Source: a virus (lineage: Duplodnaviria > Heunggongvirae > Uroviricota > Caudoviricetes). From it: DNA of 56,565 nt. Both the position numbers and the translations under genes were made by a program. The stretch covers positions 1 through 56,565 of IMG/VR virus record IMGVR_UViG_3300043788_000176; one strand, written 5' to 3'. Positions 1 through 11,876 of the stretch are shown here, in pieces. Below the pieces are notes generated by a model. That model was not told where the DNA came from. It saw only the letters and a list, made by a program, of their open reading frames with translations, and did not search any database. How positions within the stretch are numbered: the stretch's first letter is position 1; each line of letters opens with the position of its first letter.

Positions 1-201
1 GCGTGACCCGTAACGCTGTTAGCGACAAGACGGTGAGTGTCGCGGGCTCCATTTCCCGAACAACCCCGTCAGCCGACGGATGGTCGTGGAAACCTGTGGA
101 GCACCATCGTGGTCGGCACCCTTTGCGCGGGATCGACCGGCGTAGCCCCCGTAGCGAGTATGGGCCTCGCTAAGGTCTCCCCGGCCGGTCGATCCCGCGC
201 A
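1..201 (+). ncRNA. Unidentified highly structured RNA (probably truncated by window start)
   Basis: Nested hairpins: gcgaca/tgtcgc (22-43), gccgac..gatggt/accatc..gtcggc (72-117), 18-bp perfect stem 124-141/184-201 enclosing a tagcgag/ctcgcta hairpin. No convincing ORF. Confidence 0.45.
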
Positions 202-224: not shown

Positions 225-422
225 ATGGCATCGGACGCCAAATCCGGTGATAAATGCCAAACCTGTGGTGGTTCTGGATGGAACCCCGCGATTCGGGTGA
301 AGCCGGTTCACATAGAGGGATTGATCGACGGCGACCGCCGCGCCCTCGAAACCCTGCACGATTATCTCAAGCGGCGGTTGTGCTGCCCCGATTGCGGCGG
401 CAGCGGGCACCGCGCAGAGTAG
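225..422 (+). CDS. Small protein with two DnaJ-type CxxCxGxG zinc-finger motifs
   Basis: CQTCGGSG and CPDCGGSG; GGAGG RBS upstream. The TAG stop is U8-A9-G10 of the next tRNA. Confidence 0.75.
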   Translation: MASDAKSGDKCQTCGGSGWNPAIRVKPVHIEGLIDGDRRALETLHDYLKRRLCCPDCGGSGHRAE

Positions 423-487
423 TTCAGTGGCAGAACGGCGTGCTCATAACGCGCAAGTCGGAGGTTCGATCCCTCCCTCTGCGACCA
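413..487 (+). tRNA. tRNA(CAT), elongator Met or Ile2
   Basis: cgcagag/ctctgcg acceptor, loop CT-CAT-AA, TTCGAT T-loop, encoded ACCA. Confidence 0.92.
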
Positions 488-494
488 GCATTGA

Positions 495-570
495 CGCGGG
501 AGGCAAGGGCCAGTGCCCTGGTCCGGCTCATAACCGGACAACCCGGAGGCAGCATCCGGTCCCGCCACCA
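495..570 (+). tRNA. Initiator-like tRNA(CAT) with atypical D and T arms
   Basis: C1xC72 mismatch, tccgg-CTCATAA-ccgga, T-loop GGCAGCA, ACCA end. Confidence 0.8.
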
Positions 571-572
571 AC

Positions 573-665
573 CCACTGGGATCGCCGACCCCCAACGGCG
601 AGGCTTTCGTGACGCGCCGGGGCAACGTCCACCTGTCCTCCCCATGCCACCCCGGTTCCCAGTGG
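573..665 (+). ncRNA. Unidentified multi-hairpin RNA closed by a 9-bp terminal stem
   Basis: ccactggga/tcccagtgg; internal tcgccg/cggcga and ccgggg/ccccgg helices. Confidence 0.5.
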
Positions 666-722
666 CCCTATCCCACGTTGGCGTCAATCTTGTCGTCAAC
701 GTTACTCTGCGAGAGAGTTGCG

Positions 723-1040
723 ATGACAACCGTGTTTGCCAAGCATGAGCCATACGATGACGGCCATCTAGGCGAGGTCGGATTGGACATGGATCACGCG
801 GGCGCTCCGACAATCCGCGCGGTACTAATTGCCGGTAATCTCTACGCCGTTGATGGTTCACATAGGCTGGCGCAGGCGCACTATCGCGGGCTGATCCTCA
901 AGGTGATAGTCTTGGAGAGCGATCTCCATGGCGATCCGCGCATTCCAGCTGATCTTCCGCGATATGACTTTGATTACGTCATTGCGCTCAGGGAGAGTGA
1001 TTTCGCCGATGAGGCAGTTGTGGTCAATGCACCTGTTTGA
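723..1040 (+). CDS. ParB/Sulfiredoxin-like domain protein
   Basis: LYAVDGSHRLAQA motif (DGxHR). Start moved to ATG 723; stop lies in the tRNA-Phe anticodon loop. Confidence 0.7.
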   Translation: MTTVFAKHEPYDDGHLGEVGLDMDHAGAPTIRAVLIAGNLYAVDGSHRLAQAHYRGLILKVIVLESDLHGDPRIPADLPRYDFDYVIALRESDFADEAVVVNAPV

Positions 1041-1080
1041 AGAACAGGCCAAGGTGGTTCGATTCCATCCATCGGCACCA
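1005..1080 (+). tRNA. trnF: tRNA-Phe(GAA)
   Basis: gccgatg/catcggc, cctgt-TTGAAGA-acagg, TTCGAT, ACCA. Confidence 0.9.
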
Positions 1081-1084
1081 GTTT

Positions 1085-1158
1085 GCGTCCATCGTCCAAA
1101 GGAAGGGCCTCAGATTTCCATTCTGAAGATCTCGGTTCGAGTCCGTGTGGACGCTCCA
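1085..1158 (+). tRNA. trnG: tRNA-Gly(TCC)
   Basis: gcgtcca/tggacgc, U73, loop TT-TCC-AT, TTCGAG. Confidence 0.92.
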
Positions 1159-1177
1159 GATACAAGGGGAACGCGCG

Positions 1178-1489
1178 ATGATGAAGCACAGCGACTTTCG
1201 GATCGGTGTCGAATTCACGACTGGCGCTGGGCGCTGGCGATGCACCGATATCGGGACGCGGGTCATTACCGCGATCCGCCTTGATGAGGTGCGGATCGCG
1301 ACGGTCAGCGGCGGTGTGAAATCCATGCGGGCTCTGTGCTATGCTGAGGCCAATGCCGAGGGTTGGTTCAACGGGCCACCCTATGCCGTCGCTGAGAGCG
1401 TATTTGACGAGGACGGCCAAGAGGGATGTACGTTTTATGCGGGTCCCCAAGGGGATAGCGAGCCCGAGAGTCGATCGCTCCCTCGGTAG
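1178..1489 (+). CDS. Conserved hypothetical protein
   Basis: WRCTDIGTRVITAIRLD motif recalled from mobile-element hypotheticals; ends TAG TAG. Confidence 0.7.
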   Translation: MMKHSDFRIGVEFTTGAGRWRCTDIGTRVITAIRLDEVRIATVSGGVKSMRALCYAEANAEGWFNGPPYAVAESVFDEDGQEGCTFYAGPQGDSEPESRSLPR

Positions 1490-1538
1490 TAGCGAATGCG
1501 CCGGTCCCTGCTCCCTCGGCCCAGCCCGCTCCAGACAT

Positions 1539-1616
1539 TGGCAGCTAGCAATCAGGGTGACTGCGCTCGCCTGTTAAGCGAGAATGAGTCCGGTTCGATC
1601 CCGGAGCTGCCAGCCA
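1539..1616 (+). tRNA. trnN: tRNA-Asn(GTT)
   Basis: tggcagc/gctgcca, G73, ctcgc-CTGTTAA-gcgag. Confidence 0.92.
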
Positions 1617-1687
1617 ATCTTCGTGCGCACGGAGCCGGAACGCCACGGGGTCGGCGTGACAGCCAGGAGAGCACTGGCAACTGAATT

Positions 1688-1760
1688 GCGGACGAGCAGC
1701 GGTCTGCCTGCGGGTCTCCAAAACCTGCCAGCGAGGGTTCGACACCTTCCGTCCGTGCCA
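1688..1760 (+). tRNA. trnW: tRNA-Trp(CCA), weak D arm
   Basis: gcggacg/cgtccgt, G73, loop CT-CCA-AA, TTCGAC. Confidence 0.85.
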
Positions 1761-1778
1761 GCTAAAGAGGAAACCGCG

Positions 1779-2057
1779 ATGACTGAGAAATCGTTCGGCG
1801 ACGATCCGCTGATCTACAGCGAGACCGCGAAACGGCAAATCGCGGAAGACCCGGAGTTGGCAGACGTGATGAAGGATGTCGCGGCGAAGATGCGGCAGGC
1901 GCTCCACGCATGGCAAAGCGGTCAGTACCCAAACTTCGAGACCGCGATGGCGGCGCTCGGTTGCGATATTGCGGAAGTTTCCCCTGGGGACGAGGATTAT
2001 GAGGCAGTCTTCGAAGGGATTGCGATCGAAAATATCCGCAAGGGGAACGCGAAATAA
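1779..2057 (+). CDS. Hypothetical protein
   Basis: AGAGG RBS then ATG 1779; fills the gap between tRNAs. Confidence 0.7.
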   Translation: MTEKSFGDDPLIYSETAKRQIAEDPELADVMKDVAAKMRQALHAWQSGQYPNFETAMAALGCDIAEVSPGDEDYEAVFEGIAIENIRKGNAK

Positions 2058-2065
2058 TTTCAGTC

Positions 2066-2141
2066 GTGCCGCGAGCCAGCTAGGGAAGGCGTCGAGTTGC
2101 AACCTCGATTCGGCAGGGTGCGATCCCCTGGCGGCACTCCA
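2066..2141 (+). tRNA. trnC: tRNA-Cys(GCA)
   Basis: gtgccgc/gcggcac, U73, tcgag-TTGCAAC-ctcga, T-loop TGCGATC. Confidence 0.88.
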
Positions 2142-2142
2142 G

Positions 2143-2254
2143 TTTCGTGCGGGTTATCGGGTGGGCGGGTCGGTTTGGATTTGTGTTGCTCCTGGCCGGG
2201 AAGCAGCGCAGACGCCGGTCTCTGGGAAGTTGAACCGTTCCCAGACGCACGAAA
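2143..2254 (+). ncRNA. Unidentified structured RNA between tRNA-Cys and tRNA-His
   Basis: tttcgtgcg/cgcacgaaa closing stem; tttgtgttgct/agcagcgcaga and tctgggaa/ttcccaga hairpins. Confidence 0.5.
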
Positions 2255-2264
2255 ACATCTCGAT

Positions 2265-2340
2265 GGCGAGGTTAGTGAACCAGTGGAAACGCCGCCCTGT
2301 GGAGGCGGAGCAGCGGGGCCAGCACCCGCACCTCGCCCCA
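2265..2340 (+). tRNA. trnH: tRNA-His(GTG) with encoded G-1:C73
   Basis: G-1 + gcgaggt/acctcgc + C73 + CCA; ccgcc-CTGTGGA-ggcgg; T-loop GCCAGCA. Confidence 0.88.
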
Positions 2341-2345
2341 TCTAG

Positions 2346-2421
2346 GCTGGATTGGCCGAGAGAATAGGCACTCGCCCTGTAAGCGATGACGACGTAGGTT
2401 AAAGTCCTACATCCAGCACCA
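2346..2421 (+). tRNA. trnT: tRNA-Thr(TGT), C33 variant
   Basis: gctggat/atccagc (G1-C72, C2-G71), loop CC-TGT-AA, T-loop TTAAAGT. Confidence 0.75.
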
Positions 2422-2440
2422 ATTTCAGGAGAGGCGAGAG

Positions 2441-2875
2441 ATGCGCACCATAATATTCGACATTGACGGGACTCTCGCCAATGGGGCGCACCGTCAGCAT
2501 CATTTGGCCGCCCTGAAAAAGGACTGGGATGCCTTCTACGCCGCGATGGGCGAGGACACGGCTATCCAGCCGATCATCGACTTGGCCAATCAACTCGCTT
2601 GCGACTACCACATTGTCCTCTGCACTGGGCGTCCCTCCAATTATCGCGAGGTGACCGAGCGCTGGCTCTACGACCACGATGTCCCGCGCTCGGCTCTCTA
2701 CATGCGTGCTGAAGGCGACTTTCGCGACGACACCATTGTGAAACGCGAGATGCTAGCGCAGATGCGGGCGGCTGGATTTGAGCCGTGTCTGGTCGTTGAC
2801 GATCGTACAAAAGTGGTTCGGATGTGGCGTGAGGAAGGATTGGTCTGTCTGCAATGTGCCGAGGGTGATTTCTGA
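2441..2875 (+). CDS. HAD-family phosphatase resembling the 3'-phosphatase domain of T4 PseT (Pnkp)
   Basis: FDIDGTLA motif I, CTGRP motif II, VVDDR motif IV; AGGAGAGG RBS. Confidence 0.88.
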   Translation: MRTIIFDIDGTLANGAHRQHHLAALKKDWDAFYAAMGEDTAIQPIIDLANQLACDYHIVLCTGRPSNYREVTERWLYDHDVPRSALYMRAEGDFRDDTIVKREMLAQMRAAGFEPCLVVDDRTKVVRMWREEGLVCLQCAEGDF

Positions 2876-3075
2876 TGGAAACTTGCGCGTGTCGCATTGA
2901 TTGGGTTTGCTGTTTTCGGCAAGATTGCCCGCGAGCGGCATACATTCGGCGGTTGCAGGAAGCGGCTTACGAGCAAGCGCGTGAGCTTTTAGGTGATCCG
3001 CGCGAGTGCGTTTCGGTGGGACAAGAAGCGGATTGTGATGGCGGATCGTTCAATGGCGAGGATCATGCGCTCTGA
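2875..3075 (+). CDS. Small Cys-rich hypothetical protein
   Basis: TGATG coupling to the upstream gene; stop falls in the tRNA-Gln anticodon loop. Confidence 0.5.
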   Translation: METCACRIDWVCCFRQDCPRAAYIRRLQEAAYEQARELLGDPRECVSVGQEADCDGGSFNGEDHAL

Positions 3076-3113
3076 CCGCATAGATTTGGGTTCGAATCCC
3101 AATCCGCCTGCCA
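3039..3113 (+). tRNA. trnQ: tRNA-Gln(CTG)
   Basis: tggcgga/tccgcct (U1xU72), G73, atgcg-CTCTGAC-cgcat. Confidence 0.9.
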
Positions 3114-3199
3114 ATCGCGGGTCAGAGCTTTGGGCCGTCGGTGACGGGCGGTCGTGGCCTTTGCACTTAGCTCTGGATCGAGCCCACCCTCCCCGCGAT
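3114..3199 (+). ncRNA. Unidentified structured RNA
   Basis: atcgcggg/cccgcgat outer stem, cagagct/agctctg inner stem. Confidence 0.4.
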
Positions 3200-3221
3200 T
3201 TCCAACAGAAAGGGGCGCATC

Positions 3222-3518
3222 ATGGCTGAGAACGAATACTTGACAGGAACGGGCCAGTGGCTCACCGGGGTCCATCCGCGCGAGATCTGCGTCGGCGAGC
3301 ATTGTGTGATCCACAACCCATCAGACCATTGCATGCGTGGGTTCCCGACCCACTGGCGTGCTGACCGCAAGTTGATGGAGCGCATCTGTCCGCACGGCAT
3401 CGGCCATCCCGACCCCGACGACATCGCGTTCAAGCGCGCCACCCGCGGCGACAAGTTTGCCGATACCGAGGTGGTTCACGGTTGCGACGGTTGCTGTTCG
3501 CCTCGGGGATTTGTCTGA
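3222..3518 (+). CDS. Conserved phage His/Cys-rich hypothetical protein
   Basis: CVIHNPSDH...ERICPHGIGHPDPD motif typical of a phage hypothetical family. Confidence 0.8.
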   Translation: MAENEYLTGTGQWLTGVHPREICVGEHCVIHNPSDHCMRGFPTHWRADRKLMERICPHGIGHPDPDDIAFKRATRGDKFADTEVVHGCDGCCSPRGFV

Positions 3519-3591
3519 GGCGGGTGGCCCAGGTGGGTACCGCCGGCTTTGACCCGGCGCGTGTTCGGATCGTGCCCGAAGCCCGCTTCCA
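3519..3591 (+). tRNA. trnQ: tRNA-Gln(TTG), atypical
   Basis: gccgg-CTTTGAC-ccggc, T-loop ATCGTGC, short D arm, TCCA end. Confidence 0.7.
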
Positions 3592-3592
3592 A

Positions 3593-3667
3593 CGCCCATT
3601 CCGCTACCGGCTAGGCGACCCGGTTCTCAGCCGGGCAAAGCGAGTTCGACCCTCGCATGGGCGACCA
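3593..3667 (+). tRNA. trnE: tRNA-Glu(CTC)
   Basis: cgcccat/atgggcg, cccgg-TTCTCAG-ccggg, TTCGAC. Confidence 0.88.
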
Positions 3668-3671
3668 ATAC

Positions 3672-3694
3672 GCGGGCGTGGGGGAACGGTAGAC
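3672..3694 (+). pseudogene. Orphan 5' fragment of a tRNA-Leu
   Basis: gcgggcgtgggggaacggtagac = acceptor strand plus Leu-type D arm; first 8 nt identical to the tRNA at 4205; no 3' half follows. Confidence 0.6.
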
Positions 3695-3737
3695 GGAAGA
3701 TGGTGCGGAAGAGGCGGGGTCATGATACGATCGCCTT

Positions 3738-4214
3738 ATGGATCGTCGCCGCTGGTCAGACGCGGATTTGATTAGAGCCGTAAGCGAGGCAAAATCGATT
3801 GCTTCGGTTTTGCATATCATTGGACTCGTGCCGGCCGGCGGAAACTACAGCTTGATAAAAAGCCACATTCGGCGACTGCGGTTGGATACGAATCACTTTA
3901 CTGGACAAGGATGGAGCCGCGGCTGGGAACTCCCATCAAGAGGAACGCCGCTTGCGGAATTGCTAGTAGCTGGAATTCACCTGAACACCGGCCACATCAA
4001 AAAGCGTTTGATTAAGGACAGACTGATCGAGGAGCGATGCGCCCGCTGTGGCATATCAGATTGGCTTGGACAGAAACTAAGTCTGCATCTTGACCACAAG
4101 AATGGCGCGCGAACAGATTTTCGAATGGAAAATCTGTGGCTGTTGTGTCCGAATTGTCATTCGCAGACCCCAACGTACTGCGGGCGTAACGCATCAAAAA
4201 TTGCGCGGGCGTAG
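3738..4214 (+). CDS. HNH endonuclease
   Basis: CARCG...LHLDHKNG..DFRMENLWLLCPNCH; stop is U8-A9-G10 of tRNA-Leu(TAA). Confidence 0.93.
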   Translation: MDRRRWSDADLIRAVSEAKSIASVLHIIGLVPAGGNYSLIKSHIRRLRLDTNHFTGQGWSRGWELPSRGTPLAELLVAGIHLNTGHIKKRLIKDRLIEERCARCGISDWLGQKLSLHLDHKNGARTDFRMENLWLLCPNCHSQTPTYCGRNASKIARA

Positions 4215-4281
4215 CCGAAGGTCAGGCGGAGAGATTTAAACCCTCTTGTCCTATGGGGTTCGATTCCCCGCGCCCGCACCA
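4205..4281 (+). tRNA. trnL: tRNA-Leu(TAA) without long variable arm
   Basis: gcgggcg/cgcccgc, A73, loop TT-TAA-AC, about 7-nt variable region. Confidence 0.8.
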
Positions 4282-4286
4282 ATTTT

Positions 4287-4371
4287 GTCCGAGTGGCGAA
4301 AATAGTAGACGCGCCTGTCTCATGAACAGGTGCCTCCGGGCGTGGGAGTTCAACTCTCCCCTCGCGCACCA
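4287..4371 (+). tRNA. Class II Leu-type tRNA body carrying a CAT anticodon
   Basis: D arm gtggcgaaaatagtagacgc, long variable arm, A73, loop CT-CAT-GA (G37). Confidence 0.8.
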
Positions 4372-4376
4372 GTTCA

Positions 4377-4466
4377 GGGCGGCTAACCGGACAAGCGCAC
4401 CGGCACCGGTCGGAAACCGGTTGGAGCCTTCATGGGCTTGTGGAGCGTGACCACAGCCGCCCGCCA
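4377..4466 (+). tRNA. trnS: tRNA-Ser(GGA), C33, atypical T-loop
   Basis: gggcggc/gccgccc, G73, long variable arm, loop TC-GGA-AA, T-loop AGCGTGA. Confidence 0.8.
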
Positions 4467-4473
4467 CACTAAC

Positions 4474-4561
4474 GGTTGGGTATCCGAGCCGGCGCTCGGC
4501 CTCGTCTTGAAAGCGAGTGGCACGGAGACGTGTGCGGGTCGGCACCAGCACCCAACCGCCA
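4474..4561 (+). tRNA. trnS: tRNA-Ser(TGA)
   Basis: ggttggg/cccaacc, G73, loop CT-TGA-AA, long variable arm, T-loop GTCGGCA. Confidence 0.82.
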
Positions 4562-4565
4562 ATAC

Positions 4566-4654
4566 GGGCAGTCAACCGCGAGGGCTCGCGGCCCAGCTTC
4601 GAAACCTGGTGGTGCGTGAGAGCGCATGGGACTCGGAATCTCGGCTGCCCGCCA
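4566..4654 (+). tRNA. trnS: tRNA-Ser(CGA)
   Basis: gggcagt/gctgccc, G73, loop TT-CGA-AA, long variable arm, T-loop CTCGGAA. Confidence 0.8.
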
Positions 4655-4658
4655 ATTT

Positions 4659-4747
4659 GGGGCGTGCAAGCAGACAGGCGCACTGCGCTGGATTGCTAAT
4701 CCGGGCGTACCTTCGGGTATCGGCTTCGAATGCCGGCCGCCCCGCCA
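4659..4747 (+). tRNA. trnS: tRNA-Ser(GCT)
   Basis: G73, ctgga-TTGCTAA-tccgg, long variable arm, TTCGAA. Confidence 0.85.
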
Positions 4748-4760
4748 TTCGGAGAAGGTG

Positions 4761-4934
4761 ATGGCTTGGGTCTTAGTCGCCTGCATGGTCGTTTCATTTG
4801 GCAAGCACGATATTTGCGTTACCCCGCAACCCGCCCAGCAATTTGCAACGGTTGCGGCCTGCAAAGCAGCGGCCAATAAGATTGGGCCACCTCATGACTA
4901 TTACGGGCTGTGCAAGCCCGCGGAATTCAAATGA
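4761..4934 (+). CDS. Small hydrophobic, possibly exported Cys-containing protein
   Basis: GGAGAAGG RBS, MAWVLVACMVVSFG N-terminus; stops 1 nt before tRNA-Tyr. Confidence 0.65.
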   Translation: MAWVLVACMVVSFGKHDICVTPQPAQQFATVAACKAAANKIGPPHDYYGLCKPAEFK

Positions 4935-4935
4935 T

Positions 4936-5020
4936 GGGTCGGGAAAGCTGGTGGTTCCAGCAGTCGGTCTGTAAAACCGACCTCGAATGAGGAGAGGATC
5001 GTAACCTCACCGACCCACCA
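4936..5020 (+). tRNA. trnY: tRNA-Tyr(GTA)
   Basis: gggtcgg/ccgaccc, A73, loop CT-GTA-AA, variable arm cctc/gagg, T-loop ATCGTAA. Confidence 0.88.
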
Positions 5021-5022
5021 AT

Positions 5023-5098
5023 GCCCTCGTAGCTCAAAGGTAGAGCATTCGGTTGATAACCGTACCCCCGCCCTGGTCAGTACAGGGCGGGGGTACCA
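5023..5098 (+). tRNA. trnI: tRNA-Ile(GAT) with a competing alternative hairpin
   Basis: Canonical D arm, loop TT-GAT-AA, T-loop GTCAGTA, ACCA; 5062-5096 also forms a perfect 14-bp hairpin. Confidence 0.8.
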
Positions 5099-5113
5099 GA
5101 ACAGGAGACGGCG

Positions 5114-5359
5114 ATGACATGGAACCACCGCGTGATGCGGATGGACTATCCCGACGAGACCCAATTCGAGATTCATGAGGTCCACTACGATACCCCTGAT
5201 GGTCCGCCGCGTTCCTACACCAAGCGCGCGGTCGGCGTCGTCGCTGAAGACCTCGCAGGATTGGAATGGACGCTCAAGGCGATGCTGTCGGCGCTTGAAA
5301 AGCCTGTGCTGACACCAGGCGATTTCCCCGATGGAGGCAAATCGTGCCCTACTTCATGA
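5114..5359 (+). CDS. Conserved phage hypothetical protein
   Basis: AGGAG RBS; WNHRV...IHEVHYD motif. Confidence 0.8.
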   Translation: MTWNHRVMRMDYPDETQFEIHEVHYDTPDGPPRSYTKRAVGVVAEDLAGLEWTLKAMLSALEKPVLTPGDFPDGGKSCPTS

Positions 5360-5409
5360 TCAACATTGAATCTTGGCCAAAAGAGGATTGGTTTGCCAGA
5401 TTGAGTTGA

Positions 5410-5483
5410 GGGGGTATAGCTCAGAGGGAGAGCAGTCGGCCCTTAACCGATCGATCAGGGTTCGAGCCCCTGTGCCCCTACCA
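5410..5483 (+). tRNA. trnK: tRNA-Lys(CTT), C33 variant
   Basis: Canonical D and T arms, loop CC-CTT-AA, ACCA. Confidence 0.85.
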
Positions 5484-5501
5484 ACTGAAAGGATATAGCC
5501 G

Positions 5502-5732
5502 ATGGCTTGGCGGCTTCTGGTTTACAGCGCAGAGACTGACCGACTGACAGCGTCGCTGGACATTCCAGAGTTGTTCTCGCCCGATGTCGAATTCCTTGCT
5601 GAGGTAAAACCGGAGGATGATGGGTTGGGCGAATACCCGCTAGGCGCGCATCAGGCGCGGATCATAGCCGAACGCGCTGGTCTGATTTTGCCAGTTGCCG
5701 AATCGGCCTATTCGGTCGAACTAATTGTCTAG
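5502..5732 (+). CDS. Small acidic hypothetical protein
   Basis: AAGGA RBS; ORF fits between tRNAs. Confidence 0.7.
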   Translation: MAWRLLVYSAETDRLTASLDIPELFSPDVEFLAEVKPEDDGLGEYPLGAHQARIIAERAGLILPVAESAYSVELIV

Positions 5733-5733
5733 T

Positions 5734-5807
5734 GGGCGTGTCTTCCAACGACAGGAAAGTCGGTTGTCTCCCGGCAAATCGGGGTTTGACTCCCCGCACG
5801 CTCGCCA
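5734..5807 (+). tRNA. trnD: tRNA-Asp(GTC)
   Basis: gggcgtg/cacgctc, G73, loop TT-GTC-TC. Confidence 0.85.
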
Positions 5808-5855
5808 GGTTTCCTAGTTGCATTTGTAGGGTAGGCCCACTAAGTTGCTACCCTA

Positions 5856-6389
5856 ATGGGATGGAAGCCAATTGATCTCAATACGGTGCCGATCCGCAGC
5901 CGCGGAGTTTATTTGGATGCCTATGTTCCAGAACATCCTTTTGCGGATCGGCGCGGGCGCGTGCTTCTCCATAGGCTGATTGTTGAAAACAAGGTCGGCC
6001 GTTACCTAACGGCCGCAGAGATAGTTCATCATGATAATGAGAACCCGAGAGATAATGATCCAGATAATCTTTTGATAAAATCCGCACAGGAGCATTCGGC
6101 GCATCATCATCCAAGAGTGAAACGCGTAGAGCTTAAGTGCCTGAATTGTGGATCATCAGTATATAGAAGGCCAAAGCAGATAAAAAACGAGAATGTATTT
6201 TGTGACCGGCGTTGTCGCGGTTTATACAGTCTTGGCCATGCCTTTGGCGGATGCGCGCCGCGCGAGCGCAAGACCCCGCATGGCTCTGCTGGTGACTATC
6301 GTGCTGGCTGTAGATGCGATCTCTGTAAAGCATCTCACGCAAGAAAGATGAGAGAGCGGAGATTGAGACTAAAACGGAGGCTAGGGTAA
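5856..6389 (+). CDS. HNH endonuclease with C-terminal zinc fingers
   Basis: HRLIVE..VGRYL...EIVHHDNENPRDNDPDNL, then CLNC/CDRRC/CRCDLC; lower GC; stop inside tRNA-Pro. Confidence 0.92.
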   Translation: MGWKPIDLNTVPIRSRGVYLDAYVPEHPFADRRGRVLLHRLIVENKVGRYLTAAEIVHHDNENPRDNDPDNLLIKSAQEHSAHHHPRVKRVELKCLNCGSSVYRRPKQIKNENVFCDRRCRGLYSLGHAFGGCAPRERKTPHGSAGDYRAGCRCDLCKASHARKMRERRLRLKRRLG

Positions 6390-6449
6390 CGGTAACCCGC
6401 TCGCTTTGGGGGCGAGAGAATCTCGGTTCGAACCCGAGGCTTCCGACCA
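6375..6449 (+). tRNA. trnP: tRNA-Pro(TGG)
   Basis: cggaggc/gcttccg, A73, loop TT-TGG-GG, TTCGAA. Confidence 0.92.
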
Positions 6450-6511
6450 GCTTTTCCTCTTTACAACCGCCGTTAGTTATCCTAACATGGCTTATCTGAG
6501 AGGGACGCAAT

Positions 6512-7183
6512 ATGACCATGGAAGTAAGTTTGCGACGGGCGTCGCAGATCATCAACGCGATTCAGAGGCGCATTGAGCCGCCACGTGAGGAGCCAGAGGA
6601 AGACTCGTATGGTCGTCGTCGGCGCCGCCACGCCAAGAGCGTAAATCCATTGGCGGCGGTCGTGTCGGTTGATGTTGACACGACGGTTGCGGCGGGGGTG
6701 CTCGCGCGCCGCGACGAGTTGCGCCGCAAAATGGAGGCGACTTGGCGGCTGATGGAAGTGCTGACGGCACTGCGTAATGCGGTCGGTGCCGCCAATCATC
6801 AGTATGGCATCGCGAGTCTTGTGACATCGCGCGCTGGCTTGCTTCGCAAGCAGCAAATCCTCGACGGCATGATCAAGGAACTGGCTGCGGCTGGCACTCT
6901 CGACGAGAACGAGTTGGAGAGGAAACTGGACGCGTTGCGTGATCGGATCGCCGCTATGGCGGCTCGTCCATCATCGCGCTATGGCGAACCGGAAACGCCC
7001 GCCGACAAACTGTCGGTGCCGTTGCTGACGGTTGCCGATCATCGGGAACTACAGCGCGACTTGCTGGCGGCCAATCGCCGCTTGGTCGAGATTGACGACC
7101 AGTTGTCTGCCAAGAATGCGAGCAACAAGATCGCGATCGACGGCGGCGATGTCGAGGTGTTGGAAGCGGAGGGCATCATCTGA
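6512..7183 (+). CDS. Coiled-coil hypothetical protein
   Basis: GAGG RBS, 223 aa heptad-rich ORF. Confidence 0.8.
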   Translation: MTMEVSLRRASQIINAIQRRIEPPREEPEEDSYGRRRRRHAKSVNPLAAVVSVDVDTTVAAGVLARRDELRRKMEATWRLMEVLTALRNAVGAANHQYGIASLVTSRAGLLRKQQILDGMIKELAAAGTLDENELERKLDALRDRIAAMAARPSSRYGEPETPADKLSVPLLTVADHRELQRDLLAANRRLVEIDDQLSAKNASNKIAIDGGDVEVLEAEGII

Positions 7184-7400
7184 GATCGGGGGTTCGCCCC
7201 TGATGGGCGGGCGGGTGAGTGAGTAGAGAAGCGGGCAAAATCTTCAACTCCGGGGTCGCCCACCGATCGTGTCTTTGGTAACCGCGCCGGTTTCCGTTAC
7301 GACGGACGATGACGTGGTAATCCGGGCACACCGGGCGTGCTGGTTGATGGTTGCTGATTGCTGTTTGATCCGTCCGATTCTCTGTTCCTCCCCGCCCGTT
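7184..7400 (+). ncRNA. Candidate structured RNA of about 215 nt
   Basis: gatcgg/ccgatc (7184/7268); purine-rich 7209-7230 complementary to pyrimidine-rich 7378-7397; internal tccgt/acgga hairpin. Confidence 0.35.
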
Positions 7401-7429
7401 TCCCTTGCCGGATAAAGGATGTCGGTAAA

Positions 7430-7687
7430 ATGGAAAGAACACTCACACTATCAGTGATGCCAGTAGGCACGCCTGTGTGGCTGATGACCACGAATTGGCA
7501 GATCCGTGCCACCTTCATCAAGAAAATCACGATCGCGGTGGAAAGTGAGTGGGGCGCTCCCATGATCACCTATGACACCTGTCACGATGATTTTTGGGGT
7601 CAGCATGCCCAGGTAGGTCAGACCATTTTCCTCAGTGAGGATGATGCCCGCGAGGAGGTTGATCGACGGAAGAAGTTGGGCCGCTAG
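7430..7687 (+). CDS. Hypothetical protein
   Basis: Start moved to ATG 7430 after AAGGA; ends TAG TAG inside tRNA-Val. Confidence 0.6.
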   Translation: MERTLTLSVMPVGTPVWLMTTNWQIRATFIKKITIAVESEWGAPMITYDTCHDDFWGQHAQVGQTIFLSEDDAREEVDRRKKLGR

Positions 7688-7753
7688 TAGACCGGCTTAG
7701 AACGGCGCGCCTACACCGCGCAGAACGGGGTTCGACTCCTCGGCGGCCTACCA
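7678..7753 (+). tRNA. trnV: tRNA-Val(TAC), C33 variant
   Basis: gggccgc/gcggcct, A73, gcgcg-CCTACAC-cgcgc, TTCGAC. Confidence 0.85.
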
Positions 7754-7787
7754 ATCGCACACGGCTTGCGTTGGCGGCGGCAATGCT

Positions 7788-8147
7788 ATGACAGAACTTG
7801 AGGCGTGTACCTATGCTGCCGATCTTCTCAAAAGAGTTGGGTTCGAGCATCGGTACACCTCGATGCAGAGCGAGGCGTGTTACTATGGGCTGCCGGGGCG
7901 ACGCGAAGTCGTCAGAATTGCAGGACATCGATACGGTGGTGCCGAATACGGGTTGGCCCCTGTTGTCACATGCCTGACAATCACCGCGAGCAAGGAATGG
8001 TCGGAGGTACAAATCTGTAATCTGACCGCCAGCGCTATCGGCAGTTATTTGCTTCGGTGCGCGGGGATCATGCCCCTTAGCGCTAAAGAGCGCGCCCGTC
8101 GGCAACATCGCGCGCGGCTAACCCAGAAGGAGGTTCCGATGACGTGA
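7788..8147 (+). CDS. Hypothetical protein
   Basis: 119-aa ORF in tandem gene run. Confidence 0.65.
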   Translation: MTELEACTYAADLLKRVGFEHRYTSMQSEACYYGLPGRREVVRIAGHRYGGAEYGLAPVVTCLTITASKEWSEVQICNLTASAIGSYLLRCAGIMPLSAKERARRQHRARLTQKEVPMT

Positions 8148-8169
8148 CGCTCAACATCGGAGGTAAATC

Positions 8170-8868
8170 ATGCGCTACGACATGCACGAGGTCGTCATCG
8201 AGCGACCTCGTACTGGCGGCGTGTATCGCTACCGCAACATCCGTTCGCGGACTAAATTGGAGGATTGGCCAGACAAGCAGGGGATGAGCCGTCCCTACCC
8301 TGAGCACAAGGAGTTTTCCGATCTGCTCGGACCGTTGCGGAGATTTTTAGTCAGACAGGTCGGTCGGACGTGGAACGATGTCTACTCCGAAATCCGGCAG
8401 CGGATCAGCCCGCGCTCGACGGTGCAAATCCACATTCTCGGGCACCTCGATGGCATGGTTTCGACCAAGCTGATCGAGCGCGGTGGCAAACTTTTTGTGT
8501 TCGGTCCGTACTGGGTCCACGAGGTATTTCCTGGCGATCTCTACGTCAATCCGCGCACCGGCATTTTGTGTCGGATGCCGGAACGGCGGCGCTATCCAAG
8601 ACCGACCCCACCGACCGATGTCGTGGTTCTAGCTCCAGAGAGCGAGCTGCGTTTGGTCAATGGGATTTGGTACTGGGCGGTGTTCGCCGGCGTGCCAGCG
8701 CCTTCTGTTGATGCCGAGGGTCGGACGATTCGCAGCATCGCGGTCGATTGCTTTACGGGCAAGGAAAGCCCCTATCCGGGGCGCTATCGGATCGGCAAGC
8801 GGCAAGCCAACCACGCCGATCTCAAACGCCACGGTCTCGAAAACAACGACGCGTTACGCTTCCGGTGA
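8170..8868 (+). CDS. Conserved basic hypothetical protein
   Basis: GGAGG RBS; DMHEVVIERPR..DLLGPLRRFL..QVGRTWNDVYSEI motif; stop in the tRNA-Glu D-loop. Confidence 0.85.
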   Translation: MRYDMHEVVIERPRTGGVYRYRNIRSRTKLEDWPDKQGMSRPYPEHKEFSDLLGPLRRFLVRQVGRTWNDVYSEIRQRISPRSTVQIHILGHLDGMVSTKLIERGGKLFVFGPYWVHEVFPGDLYVNPRTGILCRMPERRRYPRPTPPTDVVVLAPESELRLVNGIWYWAVFAGVPAPSVDAEGRTIRSIAVDCFTGKESPYPGRYRIGKRQANHADLKRHGLENNDALRFR

Positions 8869-8923
8869 GGCGCCCCGTCTTTCAAGCGGGAGAGGCTCGG
8901 TTCGACTCCGGCACGCGTCACCA
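8848..8923 (+). tRNA. trnE: tRNA-Glu(TTC)
   Basis: gacgcgt/acgcgtc, loop CT-TTC-AA, TTCGAC, ACCA. Confidence 0.9.
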
Positions 8924-8943
8924 AACCAAGCAGGAGGACGACG

Positions 8944-9255
8944 ATGCCCATCTCTCGACCACCACCAGTGTCGGATGTGCCCGAGGCTGAAATCACCCAC
9001 TGGCAAATACGACAGTTGGAAAATGGCGATCGGCATCTCGTTGGCGTCGTCCAGAACAGCGGTCACGATGGTCGGGTGTCTTCGAAGATCATGATGATCG
9101 GCGAGCGCATCGTGACCACGCGGAGTGGGCGCAGATATTTTCTGCGTGGGCAACCGGGGACTGCTCCGGTTGCCGAATACGTCTGGCAAATGTGGTGCCG
9201 ATACAACGGGGTTGACCCCGAGACGACGGTTGACGTGACCAAAGATTTTTCTTGA
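8944..9255 (+). CDS. Conserved hypothetical protein
   Basis: AGGAGG RBS; HLVG..GRVSS..TTRSGRRYFLRGQPG motif. Confidence 0.8.
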   Translation: MPISRPPPVSDVPEAEITHWQIRQLENGDRHLVGVVQNSGHDGRVSSKIMMIGERIVTTRSGRRYFLRGQPGTAPVAEYVWQMWCRYNGVDPETTVDVTKDFS

Positions 9256-9281
9256 CACCATAGGTCAGGGCGTCCTATATT
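9252..9281 (+). promoter_or_regulatory. Sigma70-type promoter for the Y RNA-rsr unit
   Basis: TTGACA-N18-TATATT about 10 nt upstream of the first Y RNA. Confidence 0.75.
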
Positions 9282-9291
9282 CCCCTCACAA

Positions 9292-9380
9292 GATCGGCGG
9301 CGTAGGGTAACGGTTACTTCGTTGCTGTGAACGACGATGGGCTTCGGTCCAGTTCCCGTTCCCGCCTGTTCCCCGATCGC
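9292..9380 (+). ncRNA. Y RNA 1 (Ro60-binding, two-hairpin insert)
   Basis: 5' gatcgg-cggcgtagggtaacgg-ttacttcg pairs with 3' ccgttccc-gcctgttcc-ccgatc; directly upstream of rsr. Confidence 0.8.
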
Positions 9381-9396
9381 GTGAAATAGAGGTTTT

Positions 9397-9505
9397 GACC
9401 GGCGGCGTTAGGCAACGGCTACTTCGAGTTCGACTCTCGATATCCCCGCCACCCTATGGGGATAGGGCTTCAGGGCCTTTCCGTTTCCGCTTGTTCCCCG
9501 GTCGC
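9397..9505 (+). ncRNA. Y RNA 2 (T-arm-like hairpin plus two hairpins)
   Basis: Same scaffold with compensatory changes (gaccgg/ccggtc); cgag-TTCGACT-ctcg T-arm mimic. Confidence 0.8.
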
Positions 9506-9514
9506 AGTTCTAGT

Positions 9515-9652
9515 GGACGGCAGACGGCGTAGGGCAGAGGTACTTCGTAGCTCAACTGGTAGAGCATCAGTCTATCAACTGACGGTAGTTGGTTCGAATC
9601 CAACCGACCCCGCAAGGGGTTAGCTCCTCTTCCCGCTTATTCCTCTGCCGCC
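9515..9652 (+). ncRNA. Y RNA 3, YrlA-type tRNA mimic
   Basis: Same scaffold plus D arm tagctcaactggtagagc, anticodon-like stem with 6-nt loop, T arm gttgg-TTCGAAT-ccaac, no CCA. Confidence 0.88.
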
Positions 9653-9693
9653 TATTCCTGCGATCGGTTCCTTTCAACAGAGGAGTAGGTCGT

Positions 9694-11097
9694 ATGGCAC
9701 GATTGAACGTCGCGGCCCGGAAGCCGCAAACTCCACCACAGGCTACCAATCCAATCTATCCGTCGAATGTCCAGCGTACCCATGAGGGTGCGCCTGCGGC
9801 AGAGATTCCGGTCGAACTCCAACTGCGTCGCGCTGTGTGTTCCTGCCTGTTGTGGGAGGACACCCACTACGAGAGCGGCAAGGACATCGGCGACCGCATT
9901 GTCGAACTCGTCGGCAAGGTGCCGGTGGGAGTCGCGACCAACTTGGCGATGGACGCCCGCAGTCATTTCCATTTGCGGCATGCGCCGCTGCTGGTCATGG
10001 CGGCTGTCGCGGCGCCGGGTCGAGGCGGTTCACGGATGATCGGCGAGGCGCTGGCGAACGTGATCCAGCGGCCTGACGAATTGACCGAATTCCTGGCGAT
10101 CTATGCCAAGGTCTACGGCGTGCCGCCAAATGCTGTCCGCAAGCGGCTGTCGGCACAGGTCAAGAAGGGTATCGCAGCGGCGTTCGGCAAGTTCGATCGC
10201 TATCAGCTCGGCAAGTATTTCTCGCCCTCTGGTGAGAAGGGTCAGCCGATCCGCGCCCGCGATGCGATGTTCTTGACGCACCCAAAGCCGCTCGACGAAG
10301 AGCAGGCCGCTCATTGGAAGCAGCTTGTCGCCAAAAAGATCGTCGAGGAGGGTGGGGCTGACACTTGGGAAACCAAGCTGTCGAGCGGCAAGGACAAGAA
10401 GGAGACCTTCGAAGAGCAGTTGCGTGCTGGGAAGCTCGGCTATCTCGCCCTATTGCGCAATCTGCGCAACATGACGCAGGCGGGGGTTGATGAAACCCTG
10501 ATTGCCGACGCAATCGTCGGTCGTCGTGGGGCTCGCCGGGTGTTGCCATTCCGCTATGTCACGGCGGCGCGCGCTTGCCCGCAGATGGCAAAGCCGCTTG
10601 ATCAAGCACTGCAGCAAGCGATTCTTGATCTTCCGGTATTGCCGGGCCGCACCGTGGTGCTGGTCGATGTCTCAGGTTCGATGGACGCGCCAATCTCAGG
10701 CAAGTCCGAACTGAACCGCATTGACGTGGCGGCGACATTGGGAGCGATCGTGCCTGGCGACTGTCAGACATTCTCGTTCTCGCACTCGGTAGTTGCAGTT
10801 GGCCAGCCGCGCGGTCTCTCTGGCATCGAGGCGATCAAGCGCAGCCAGCAGCACGGCGGAACGTATCTCGGTCAGGCTGTCGATTTCGTGAACAGGATTG
10901 ATCATGATCGGCTCATCGTGATCACCGATGAACAGAGTCATGACCACGTGCCGGCACCGAAGGCGAGCAAGGCTTACATCATCAACGTCGCCTCATATCG
11001 AAACGGCGTCGGCTATGGCGATCGGTGGATTCATCTGGATGGATTCTCCGAGCAGACACTCCGCTTCATTGCTGAGTTCGAGAAAATCCTGAATTGA
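9694..11097 (+). CDS. rsr: Ro60/TROVE-domain RNA-binding protein (Rsr)
   Basis: THEGAPA, LRRAVCSCLLWED, IQRPDELTEFLA, LLRNLRN, VLPFRY, VLVDVSGSM and VITDEQ (vWA MIDAS); AGGAG RBS before ATG 9694. Confidence 0.96.
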   Translation: MARLNVAARKPQTPPQATNPIYPSNVQRTHEGAPAAEIPVELQLRRAVCSCLLWEDTHYESGKDIGDRIVELVGKVPVGVATNLAMDARSHFHLRHAPLLVMAAVAAPGRGGSRMIGEALANVIQRPDELTEFLAIYAKVYGVPPNAVRKRLSAQVKKGIAAAFGKFDRYQLGKYFSPSGEKGQPIRARDAMFLTHPKPLDEEQAAHWKQLVAKKIVEEGGADTWETKLSSGKDKKETFEEQLRAGKLGYLALLRNLRNMTQAGVDETLIADAIVGRRGARRVLPFRYVTAARACPQMAKPLDQALQQAILDLPVLPGRTVVLVDVSGSMDAPISGKSELNRIDVAATLGAIVPGDCQTFSFSHSVVAVGQPRGLSGIEAIKRSQQHGGTYLGQAVDFVNRIDHDRLIVITDEQSHDHVPAPKASKAYIINVASYRNGVGYGDRWIHLDGFSEQTLRFIAEFEKILN

Positions 11098-11300
11098 CCC
11101 CTGACGATCTCCGGGAGGCTGGGCTCTATCTCTATGGTTGGGGATGGCAGACCCGGCTTTCCGAGACGCTTGGTGTCGCGGATCGCACCGTGCGGCGATG
11201 GGCGTCGGGTGCCGTCGAGGTTCCCGGTCCAGCGCGGTGCGCGATTCACTGCCTCGTCGAGAGCAAAAAGTTACGCATGGCCACGTCGTCAACTGGATAG
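11094..11300 (+). CDS. Small HTH DNA-binding protein
   Basis: QTRLSETLGVADRTVRRWASG; overlaps the rsr stop; stop in the tRNA-Arg D-loop. Confidence 0.8.
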   Translation: MTPDDLREAGLYLYGWGWQTRLSETLGVADRTVRRWASGAVEVPGPARCAIHCLVESKKLRMATSSTG

Positions 11301-11356
11301 ACACCGAGATTACGAATCTCGCATTAGTGTGGGTTCGAATCCCACCGTGGCCTCCA
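11279..11356 (+). tRNA. trnR: tRNA-Arg(ACG)
   Basis: ggccacg/cgtggcc, cgaga-TTACGAA-tctcg. Confidence 0.9.
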
Positions 11357-11364
11357 TACTCTAC

Positions 11365-11436
11365 GGCCCGCTACCTTGGACGGTGCCTCGGTCTTCTAAT
11401 CCGAGTGAGAGGGTTCGAATCCTTCGCGGGTCACCA
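11365..11436 (+). tRNA. trnR: tRNA-Arg(TCT)
   Basis: ggcccgc/gcgggtc, loop CT-TCT-AA. Confidence 0.88.
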
Positions 11437-11438
11437 CT

Positions 11439-11510
11439 GCGCTCGCCAGCGGATCTGGCGTCTGGCCTCCGAAGCCGGAATGCGGGGTCCGACTCCCCGC
11501 GGGCGCGCCA
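11439..11510 (+). tRNA. trnR: tRNA-Arg(CCG)
   Basis: gcgctcg/cgggcgc, loop CT-CCG-AA. Confidence 0.85.
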
Positions 11511-11512
11511 GA

Positions 11513-11590
11513 GCGCGACTAGCCCAATTTGGCAGAGGCGGCTGTTTCAAGAACAGCAGGTTCGGGGTTCGAATCCCCGGTCGCGTACCA
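11513..11590 (+). tRNA. trnL: tRNA-Leu(CAA) with short variable arm
   Basis: gcgcgac/gtcgcgt, A73, gctgt-TTCAAGA-acagc, 5-nt variable region. Confidence 0.85.
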
Positions 11591-11594
11591 TCAT

Positions 11595-11671
11595 GGGATC
11601 GTGACGCAATTGGATAGCGTAGCGGATTTTTAATCCGAAGGTTGTGAGTTCGAGCCTCACCGGTCCCACCA
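11595..11671 (+). tRNA. trnK: tRNA-Lys(TTT)
   Basis: gggatcg/cggtccc, loop TT-TTT-AA. Confidence 0.92.
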
Positions 11672-11672
11672 A

Positions 11673-11746
11673 GCCCACATAGCTCAGTGGTAGAGCAATG
11701 GATTCGTAACCCATAGACGCCTGTTCGATCCAGGCTGTGGGCACCA
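11673..11746 (+). tRNA. trnT: tRNA-Thr(CGT)
   Basis: gcccaca/tgtgggc, loop TT-CGT-AA. Confidence 0.92.
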
Positions 11747-11758
11747 CTAACTTTTCTC

Positions 11759-11787
11759 TTGACGCCATCGGGATCGCTGCTTATCTT
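11759..11787 (+). promoter_or_regulatory. Sigma70-type promoter for the suppressor tRNA-pth2 unit
   Basis: TTGACG-N17-TATCTT, 15 nt before the CUA tRNA. Confidence 0.75.
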
Positions 11788-11802
11788 GCGCTCTAGGAAC
11801 AA

Positions 11803-11876
11803 GCCTCGTTAGCTCAGCAGCCGAGCAGCCGGCTCTAACCCGGTGGAGGTGGGGGCGGCACCCACACGAGGCACCA
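11803..11876 (+). tRNA. Amber suppressor tRNA (CTA anticodon)
   Basis: gcctcgt/acgaggc, A73, CCA; D stem gctc/gagc; gccgg-CTCTAAC-ccggt; T arm gtggg-GGCGGCA-cccac. Confidence 0.88.

Follow-up and report, generated by a model that had tools for sequence, protein, structure and literature searches.

The window analysed here, meaning the whole stretch of 56,565 bases that opens the 120,565-base IMG/VR virus record IMGVR_UViG_3300043788_000176 (Caudoviricetes), carries at its left end a transfer RNA (tRNA) array that runs on across the genome ends, and nine of the 34 decoder tRNAs in this array (26%) have a variant 54:58 combination in the T-loop. Judged by sequence comparison, the nine are probably genuine phage tRNA genes with isofunctional alternative T-loops, which are kept by compensatory change and are not specific to phages.

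In a standard tRNA, the reverse-Hoogsteen pair T54-A58 stacks on G53:C61 and ejects residues 59 and 60, and residues 55-57 dock on the D-loop. In the nine genes, T54-A58 appears to be replaced by G54.G58 together with A60 (five genes), by A54.U58, usually with A60 (three genes), or by C54.G58 (one gene), and the 54.58 pair would still stack on 53:61, eject 59 and 60, and free 55-57 for docking on the D-loop. C56 and mostly G53:C61 are kept, and G55 is accompanied by AG in place of GG in the D-loop. Compensatory change would thus preserve the elbow, and with it the L-shape that RNase P, EF-Tu and the ribosome require. This picture of a preserved elbow draws on covariation and on the reverse-Hoogsteen pairs of purine-motif triplexes, of which there are three (G.G, A.A and U.A). 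The high share of variants in this phage most likely reflects looser or different constraints on phage arrays, relaxed constraint being assumed, plus frequent swapping of tRNA cassettes between related phages; defence evasion is not required to explain it.

Structure of the variant tRNA genes

T-loop 7-mers were numbered as positions 54-60. An earlier note, made from the sequence of the window, had named nine loci with their 54..58 classes, with C56 in all nine and A60 in the five G..G loops, and reading the cloverleaves bore this out: all nine loci form cloverleaves with an encoded NCCA end, and the 7-mers fall exactly at 54-60. G54..G58 with A60 is found in the genes starting at 495, 2265, 4474, 5023 and 11803 (5/9), A54..T58 in those at 3519, 4377 and 4936 (3/9), and C54..G58 in that at 4566 (1/9); the genes are named by these positions below. 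C56 and R57 are each retained in 9/9, and the closing pair G53:C61 is present in four of the five G54..G58 genes, the exception being 495 with A:T. Stems with at least 6/7 acceptor, 4/5 anticodon and 4/5 T pairs are formed in 8/9 genes (4474 requires one T-stem bulge), and U33 together with a purine at 37 is likewise found in 8/9 (4377 has C33).

All nine genes lie on the + strand. Among those of the G54..G58 class, the gene with anticodon CAT (495..570) has a C1.C72 mismatch, the loop GGCAGCA at 548-554, and a D-loop with CAG and no GG; its sequence recurs in the 98%-related phages L003 and L004 except for base 1 (A1.C72 in L003). For tRNA-His (GTG; 2265..2340), which combines G-1 with C73, the loop GCCAGCA at 2318-2324 and a weak D stem (two Watson-Crick pairs), the start given in the earlier note was corrected, 2265 being G-1 and the body beginning at 2266. 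The L003 ortholog of this gene differs solely at position 59 (C to A), and the tRNA-His of L004 is a different, canonical gene. The class II tRNA-Ser (TGA; 4474..4561), with the loop GTCGGCA at 4538-4544 and a bulged A at 4547 in the T stem, was read by hand and is the weakest of the nine; it still has a 7/7 acceptor stem, G73 and CCA, and is identical in L004. The remaining two are tRNA-Ile (GAT; 5023..5098; loop GTCAGTA at 5076-5082) and an amber-suppressor-type tRNA (CTA; 11803..11876) with the loop GGCGGCA at 11854-11860 and the D-loop AGCAGCC (A18, no GG).

The A54..T58 class comprises tRNA-Gln (TTG; 3519..3591), with the loop ATCGTGC at 3569-3575 and a very small D-loop, a class II tRNA-Ser (GGA; 4377..4466), with the loop AGCGTGA at 4444-4450, C33, and a D-loop with AAG and no GG, and a class II tRNA-Tyr (GTA; 4936..5020), with the loop ATCGTAA at 4998-5004 and the D-loop TGGTT; the first two are identical in L004. 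The sole C54..G58 gene is a class II tRNA-Ser (CGA; 4566..4654; loop CTCGGAA at 4632-4638). In energy folding, the full cloverleaf was optimal for 495 and 4936 (z = -3.85 for the minimum-free-energy fold of 4936), and a T arm with a loop of seven nucleotides was obtained for 5/9 genes (495, 2265, 4377, 4566 and 4936).

Two side observations concern individual genes. Gene 495 is a second CAT tRNA whose 1:72 mismatch is as in bacterial initiators, but which is without the initiator's three G:C pairs in the anticodon stem; it may be an initiator, an elongator tRNA-Met or a tRNA-Ile2. In tRNA-Ser(GGA) 4377, C replaces the near-universal U at position 33.

Only variant genes supply the His, Tyr, Ile(GAT) and amber-suppressor anticodons as well as three of the four Ser anticodons, and the coverage of all 20 amino acids by the array includes them. 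Of the variant genes, 495, 2265, 3519, 4377, 4474 and 4566 are covered by contigs of low depth from four studies of soil metatranscriptomes; possibly carried over from DNA and unable to show processing, these contigs give a weak hint that the six genes are expressed.

Detection of the genes

To avoid circularity, a scan was written that ignores the T-loop sequence and requires at least 6/7 pairs in the acceptor stem and at least 4/5 in both the T and the anticodon stem, together with T33, R37 and NCCA. Run on both strands of the 120.6-kilobase (kb) genome, this blind scan returned 25 hits, all of them on the + strand in the array, and zero hits outside it. Seven of the nine variant genes pass; 4377 fails solely on C33, and 4474 on the bulged A at 4547. 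As the chance of a GNCRGYA match is about 1 in 1000 per 7-mer, five such loops in 34 genes are not explained by chance.

Standard finders miss most of these genes, as the earlier note had expected. With default settings, ARAGORN detects just 3519 and 11803 (2/9), the Rfam tRNA model (RF00005, gathering threshold 29 bits) reports only 5023 (36.4 bits; 1/9), and 6/9 are missed by both. The other eight gave no Rfam tRNA hit even when slices of about 2 kb were searched at E<=10. Gene 4377 is found by ARAGORN only at -ps85/-ps80, and 4474 by no detector. The Rfam model is insensitive to this array as such, since the T54/A58 genes 3593, 4659, 2066 and 5734 are missed too.

Covariation in phage tRNAs

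Two sets of phage tRNAs were compiled. For the first, relatives of the Ro60-like gene and of the Pth2 gene in the array of this phage led to linked arrays, on which the blind scan yielded 128 unique tRNAs; loci linked to Pth2 (L019-L025) contributed few arrays, and L003 and L004, being mostly identical to this phage, contributed little covariation signal. The 54:58 counts in this set were T:A 111, G:G 9, A:T 4, A:A 2, C:G 1 and T:T 1. Non-T at 54 goes with non-A at 58 (Fisher p = 1e-15), G54 goes with G58 (p = 4e-4), and A60 is found in 9/9 G:G loops. The second set comprised 1677 unique tRNAs from 166 IMG/VR loci, with 54:58 counts of T:A 1391, A:T 148, G:G 60, A:A 24, C:A 10 and others at most 8, where absolute frequencies are biased by the choice of each locus for one variant tRNA. 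A60 was present in 53/56 G:G, 123/141 A:T and 14/19 A:A loops vs 41/1330 canonical loops, C56 was near-invariant (53/56 G:G and 140/141 A:T loops), and G53:C61 was found in 50/56 G:G loops.

The covariation extends to the D-loop. Where G55 is present, the D-loop mostly carries AG instead of GG (41/47 vs 51/1507; p = 2e-48; 1587 phage tRNAs), and within the array G55 accompanies CAG or AAG in 495, 4377 and 11803. Loops with T, A or G at position 56 mostly occur with the complementary base after the G18-like purine of the D-loop; for tRNA-Ala 120250 and tRNA-Asp 5734, the complementary base was read at the position-19 site. The sharpest case is tRNA-Tyr, which has ATCGTAA with a TGG D-loop in this phage and GGCAGCA with a CAG D-loop in L004; the acceptor and T stems of the two orthologs are the same despite the switched T-loop and D-loop.

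Since 54 and 58 are non-independent and are accompanied by A60, by A18 with G55, and by 19:56 swaps, the data fit a selected alternative elbow, as the earlier note had proposed from covariation at 54 and 58; variants fall into few classes among the 1677 tRNAs, and the independent variation of 54 and 58 that it had named as refuting does not occur in this survey.

Elbow changes were also seen in T54/A58 genes of the array, namely in tRNA-Cys (2066-2141; TGCGATC, with G55) and tRNA-Arg(CCG) (11439-11509; TCCGACT, with C55), and at position 56 in tRNA-Thr (2346-2421; TTAAAGT, with A56), tRNA-Asp (5734-5807; TTTGACT, with T56) and tRNA-Ala (genome 120250-120323, beyond the window; TTGGACT, with G56). 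Within the A54..T58 class of the survey, T53.T61 replaces G53:C61 in 58/141 loops, e.g. in the Microbacterium loci L215, L222 and L228 and in many viral Asn and Lys tRNAs. The nine nucleotides of this subclass read like TTCGAAT plus an inserted A and an inserted T, and may represent a stem of four base pairs whose T-loop has gained one base-pair layer.

Occurrence in other phages and in cells

Related phages carry the loops in changing combinations. L003 and L004 have different His, Tyr and Ile genes, some variant and some canonical. Among distant phages, an AT-rich one (L006) has a tRNA-His with GGCAGTA, and another (L010) a tRNA-Glu with ATCGTGA. The cultured Erythrobacter phage vB_EliS-L02 (L026, GenBank OL955261) has GGCAGCA with an AGCAG D-loop in tRNA-Val(GAC), ATCGTAA in tRNA-Gly(GCC), and compensated D-stem changes in tRNA-Tyr. 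About 8 kb of its GenBank record (68300-76600) are without any annotated feature and contain at least 33 tRNA genes; its tRNA-Val(GAC) is also missed by ARAGORN. Arrays richer in variants than the present one were found in L078 (13/28), L046 (9/14) and L042 (7/15), and arrays without variants in L017 (0/21) and L021 (0/10). In L078 (IMGVR_UViG_3300043411_000601, 4088-9218), the 13 non-T:A tRNAs belong to the classes G:G, A:A, A:T and C:A. Among 50,697 phage records, megablast with the array as query found nothing beyond a chance-like match of 42 bases, and a distant search with tRNA-His alone gave nothing.

For a wider survey, pattern scans were performed with one common D-arm sequence followed by GNCRGYA or ANCGTR at the exact T-loop distance. 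GNCRGYA was found on 46 viral contigs (39 perfect cloverleaves) and on at least 120 cellular contigs (perfect cloverleaves in 65 of 80 parsed), and ANCGTR on at least 120 viral contigs (at least 117 perfect cloverleaves) and at least 120 cellular contigs (at least 91 perfect cloverleaves); with a single D arm, these counts are lower bounds, and the frequencies in cells and viruses are not properly comparable. Together, the two patterns identify at least 156 cellular contigs with the same loops. A narrower pattern that combined an A18-type D arm with GGCRGYA was discarded: it matched 0 viral contigs and gave 12 cellular hits, of which 11 were clearly not tRNAs and the twelfth, on a Woesearchaeota contig, did not have the queried loop in T-loop register.

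Several of the cellular tRNAs form lineage-wide families. GTCAGCA occurs in tRNA-Asp of Patescibacteria, tRNA-Met of DPANN archaea and tRNA-Val(CAC) of Acidimicrobiaceae, and tRNA-Lys(UUU) has ATCGTAC in Alphaproteobacteria and ATCGTAA in Microbacterium; further families are the tRNA-His of Micromonospora and mycobacteria and the tRNA(CAU) and tRNA-Val(CAC) of Burkholderiales. Three cellular genomes were checked in full with the Rfam model and ARAGORN. The sole detected tRNA-Asp has GTCAGCA in two of them, from Nomurabacteria (37 tRNAs) and Saccharibacteria (42 tRNAs), and in the third, a complete 6.0-megabase Reyranella chromosome, a single one of 45 distinct tRNAs is variant, namely the sole detected tRNA-Lys(UUU) with ATCGTAC. 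Variants thus amount to 1/45 (Reyranella), 2/37 (Nomurabacteria) and 1/42 (Saccharibacteria) tRNAs per genome. As some bacteria show no other tRNA for the codon concerned, the loops support normal cellular translation. The Nomurabacteria genome (G001, locus L486) further has a tRNA-His with AGCATAA (A54, G55, T58) and several other tRNAs with G55 (TGCAAAT, TGCGATT, TGCAACT), and Patescibacteria seem to be rich in elbow variants.

Evaluation of the explanations

Several observations weigh against genuine tRNAs with equivalent T-loops. The share of variants here (26%) and in the two richest of the other arrays (13/28 and 9/14) is far above the one or two per cellular genome, and the pattern scans, limited to one D arm, do not put cells and viruses on a common scale. 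A54.U58 is not an obvious isostere of U54.A58. Complementarity between the variable region and the 3' acceptor strand allows tRNA-Ile 5023 to form a perfect hairpin of 14 base pairs (5062-5096) that spans the T arm and exceeds the cloverleaf in stability by 12.7 kcal/mol (-40.0 vs -27.3 kcal/mol); in the L004 ortholog, the T-loop is unchanged and the hairpin is missing. It is doubtful that 5023 is a working tRNA in this particular phage; the hairpin may disable this copy, or may serve as a hairpin signal ending the Ser-Tyr-Ile block. Further defects are the bulged T stem of 4474, C33 of 4377, and the D stem of 2265 with its two Watson-Crick pairs.

An adaptive origin of the variants is the strongest competitor, though an unlikely one. 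The variants would resist a host nuclease, toxin or surveillance factor that reads T54/Psi55/A58, or would bypass TrmA, TruB and TrmI, and would be the elbow-level counterpart of the anticodon-loop changes in T5 tRNAs. The greater frequency of variants in this array (9/34) and in L078, L046 and L042 than in the three cellular genomes points in this direction, as does the finding that, for a given anticodon (His, Tyr, Ile), close phages exchange a canonical gene for a variant one, a swap such as an arms race might give. The T-loop is cut by a known nuclease, the CdiA-CT of Burkholderia pseudomallei E479 (PMC9086364), evasion of anticodon nucleases is documented for phage tRNAs (PMC10264068, PMC11555353), and the gene for a PNKP-type phosphatase in the array hints at RNA repair. 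However, only a quarter of the array is altered, many phage arrays such as those of L017 and L021 have no variants, and a search of the genome found no RNA ligase, RtcB or CCA-adding enzyme. In free-living as well as symbiotic cells, the same loops are carried by the sole tRNA detected for a codon, and they occur across many lineages of cells, so that these designs need no viral rationale. The earlier note had inferred escape from T-loop-recognising nucleases or modifying enzymes, a proposal that is weakened by the occurrence of the loops in sole cellular tRNA-Asp and tRNA-Lys(UUU). Equally unlikely is the broader claim that alternative elbows (G54.G58/A60, A54.U58, A18.G55, swapped 19:56) are systematically enriched in phage arrays as a means of escaping a host activity that reads the canonical T-loop, be it a defence or toxin nuclease or a modification-dependent surveillance step; the enrichment in phages may leave room for an adaptive component.

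A different local fold is less probable still. Here, the T arm would form an extended hairpin, with G54 pairing with Y59 around a tetraloop or with Watson-Crick A54-U58 or C54-G58 closing a triloop, and the elbow would be lost or rebuilt. Position 59 is C or T in 47/56 G:G loops, A:T and C:G are Watson-Crick combinations, and the energy model gives the T arm of 4474 as a helix of three base pairs with a tetraloop. Against this fold, A59 is found in 9/56 G:G loops and in the L003 ortholog of tRNA-His, and A60 is conserved though it would be an unpaired bulge there. C56 is near-invariant and position 55 covaries with the D-loop; 55 and 56 should therefore still contact positions 18 and 19.

Decay of the nine into degenerating or non-decoding tRNA-like genes, tolerated because host tRNAs do the work, could be read from the eight of nine genes missed by the Rfam model, the defects in 5023, 4474, 4377 and 2265, and the non-decoding look-alikes in the genome, but is very improbable given changes compensated at three or more interacting positions, few recurrent rather than random loop classes, intact acceptor, anticodon and T stems, encoded CCA, the G-1:C73 kept in tRNA-His, and the function of the same loops in cells.

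Comparison with known systems

tRNAs with a 54.58 combination other than U.A are a kind already known. A review treats U54-A58 as universal except in eukaryotic initiators (PMC7912444), and the eukaryotic initiator tRNA-Met, in which a purine-purine Hoogsteen-type pair A54-A58 (m1A58) with A60 replaces U54-A58 (PMC7912444; PMC3950347), provides one precedent. Like the initiator, the phage G:G class follows the scheme of purine 54, purine 58 and A60. The phage A:A loops read ATCGAAA or ATCGACA, which we take to be the initiator loop sequence. Unlike the initiator, the phage tRNAs are bacterial-type elongators and a suppressor of many specificities, with G.G or A.U and no link to initiation. The other precedent is a laboratory selection in E. 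coli, from which Zagryadskaya, Doyon and Steinberg (NAR 2003) reportedly obtained functional suppressor tRNAs with G54-G58 or G54-A58, G54-G58 being modelled as a close mimic of the reverse-Hoogsteen U54-A58 pair; an A54-U58 class is not known from that selection. Unlike those synthetic clones, the phage design is natural, is found in hundreds of genes, has the A60 signature and occurs beside a second natural class, A54-U58. The single-copy cellular tRNAs share the loops with the phage, but in cells there are one or two per genome, each fixed in one isoacceptor, and in the phage nine over eight specificities.

Resistance to PrrC- or retron-type nucleases through anticodon-loop changes has been demonstrated for T5-type phage tRNAs (PMC10264068; PMC11555353). 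As in T5-type phages, members of the present array differ from host tRNAs at conserved positions; unlike there, the changes lie in the T-loop, and the variants exist in cells too, so that they are not a viral departure. The CdiA-CT(E479) tRNase, which cuts between the conserved T and Psi of the T-loop (PMC9086364), is an interbacterial toxin and not a phage defence. The literature searched, of which the coverage is incomplete, yielded no account of naturally occurring G54/G58 or A54/U58 T-loops, and a paper on the Anabaena tRNA operon makes no mention of T-loops. What appears to be new is that natural, rule-bound G54.G58/A60 and A54.U58 loops are common in the arrays of phages and have become fixed in certain isoacceptors of cells.

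These loops point to a small closed set of alternatives in which 54, 58 and 60 change jointly, 55 changes with 18, and 56 with 19, and they make up a natural data set on covariation in the tRNA elbow. They account for the undercounting of phage-array tRNAs in annotation pipelines, of which the wholly unannotated 8-kb array in the GenBank phage record is an example. As test objects, such genes, e.g. the natural G54.G58 amber-suppressor-type tRNA, can be used to determine what RNase P, the ribosome, and the enzymes and nucleases acting on the T-loop require. Should the phage enrichment prove adaptive, the tRNA-centred conflict between phage and host would extend to a new part of the molecule, a second front beside the anticodon loop.

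The array and its neighbouring genes

The phage record is rated complete, has direct terminal repeats and 59% G+C, and occurs in soil metagenomes. The array occupies positions 413-11876 of the window, and its 34 decoder tRNAs, counted with two that lie beyond the genome ends, serve all 20 amino acids and include one with the amber-reading anticodon CTA. The rest of the array in the window (413..11746, + strand) consists of 23 further decoder tRNAs, all with T54/A58, as have tRNA-Ala(TGC) at 120250 and tRNA-Gly(GCC) at 120328 (genome 120250-120403), which lie just before the start of the window across the genome ends. Non-decoding tRNA look-alikes are present in the same genome.

Between the tRNA genes, small open reading frames (ORFs) encode three HNH endonucleases, a PNKP-type phosphatase, a Ro60/TROVE-VWA protein and a Pth2 peptidyl-tRNA hydrolase. 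The phosphatase ORF (2441-2875) matches the HAD_PNKP phosphatase domain (E = 1e-33), and no kinase domain was seen in this ORF; RtcB, an Rnl2-type RNA ligase and a CCA-adding enzyme were searched for in the phage genome, and none was found. The Ro60/TROVE-VWA ORF (9694-11097) is preceded, in the region 9290-11097, by three repeated modules that start with GGCGGCGTAGGG. Together, the ORF and the modules look like a phage Ro60/Y-RNA-like system, and one of the modules contains a tRNA-like element at 9545-9607 (Rfam tRNA, 43 bits, model positions 5-66 only).

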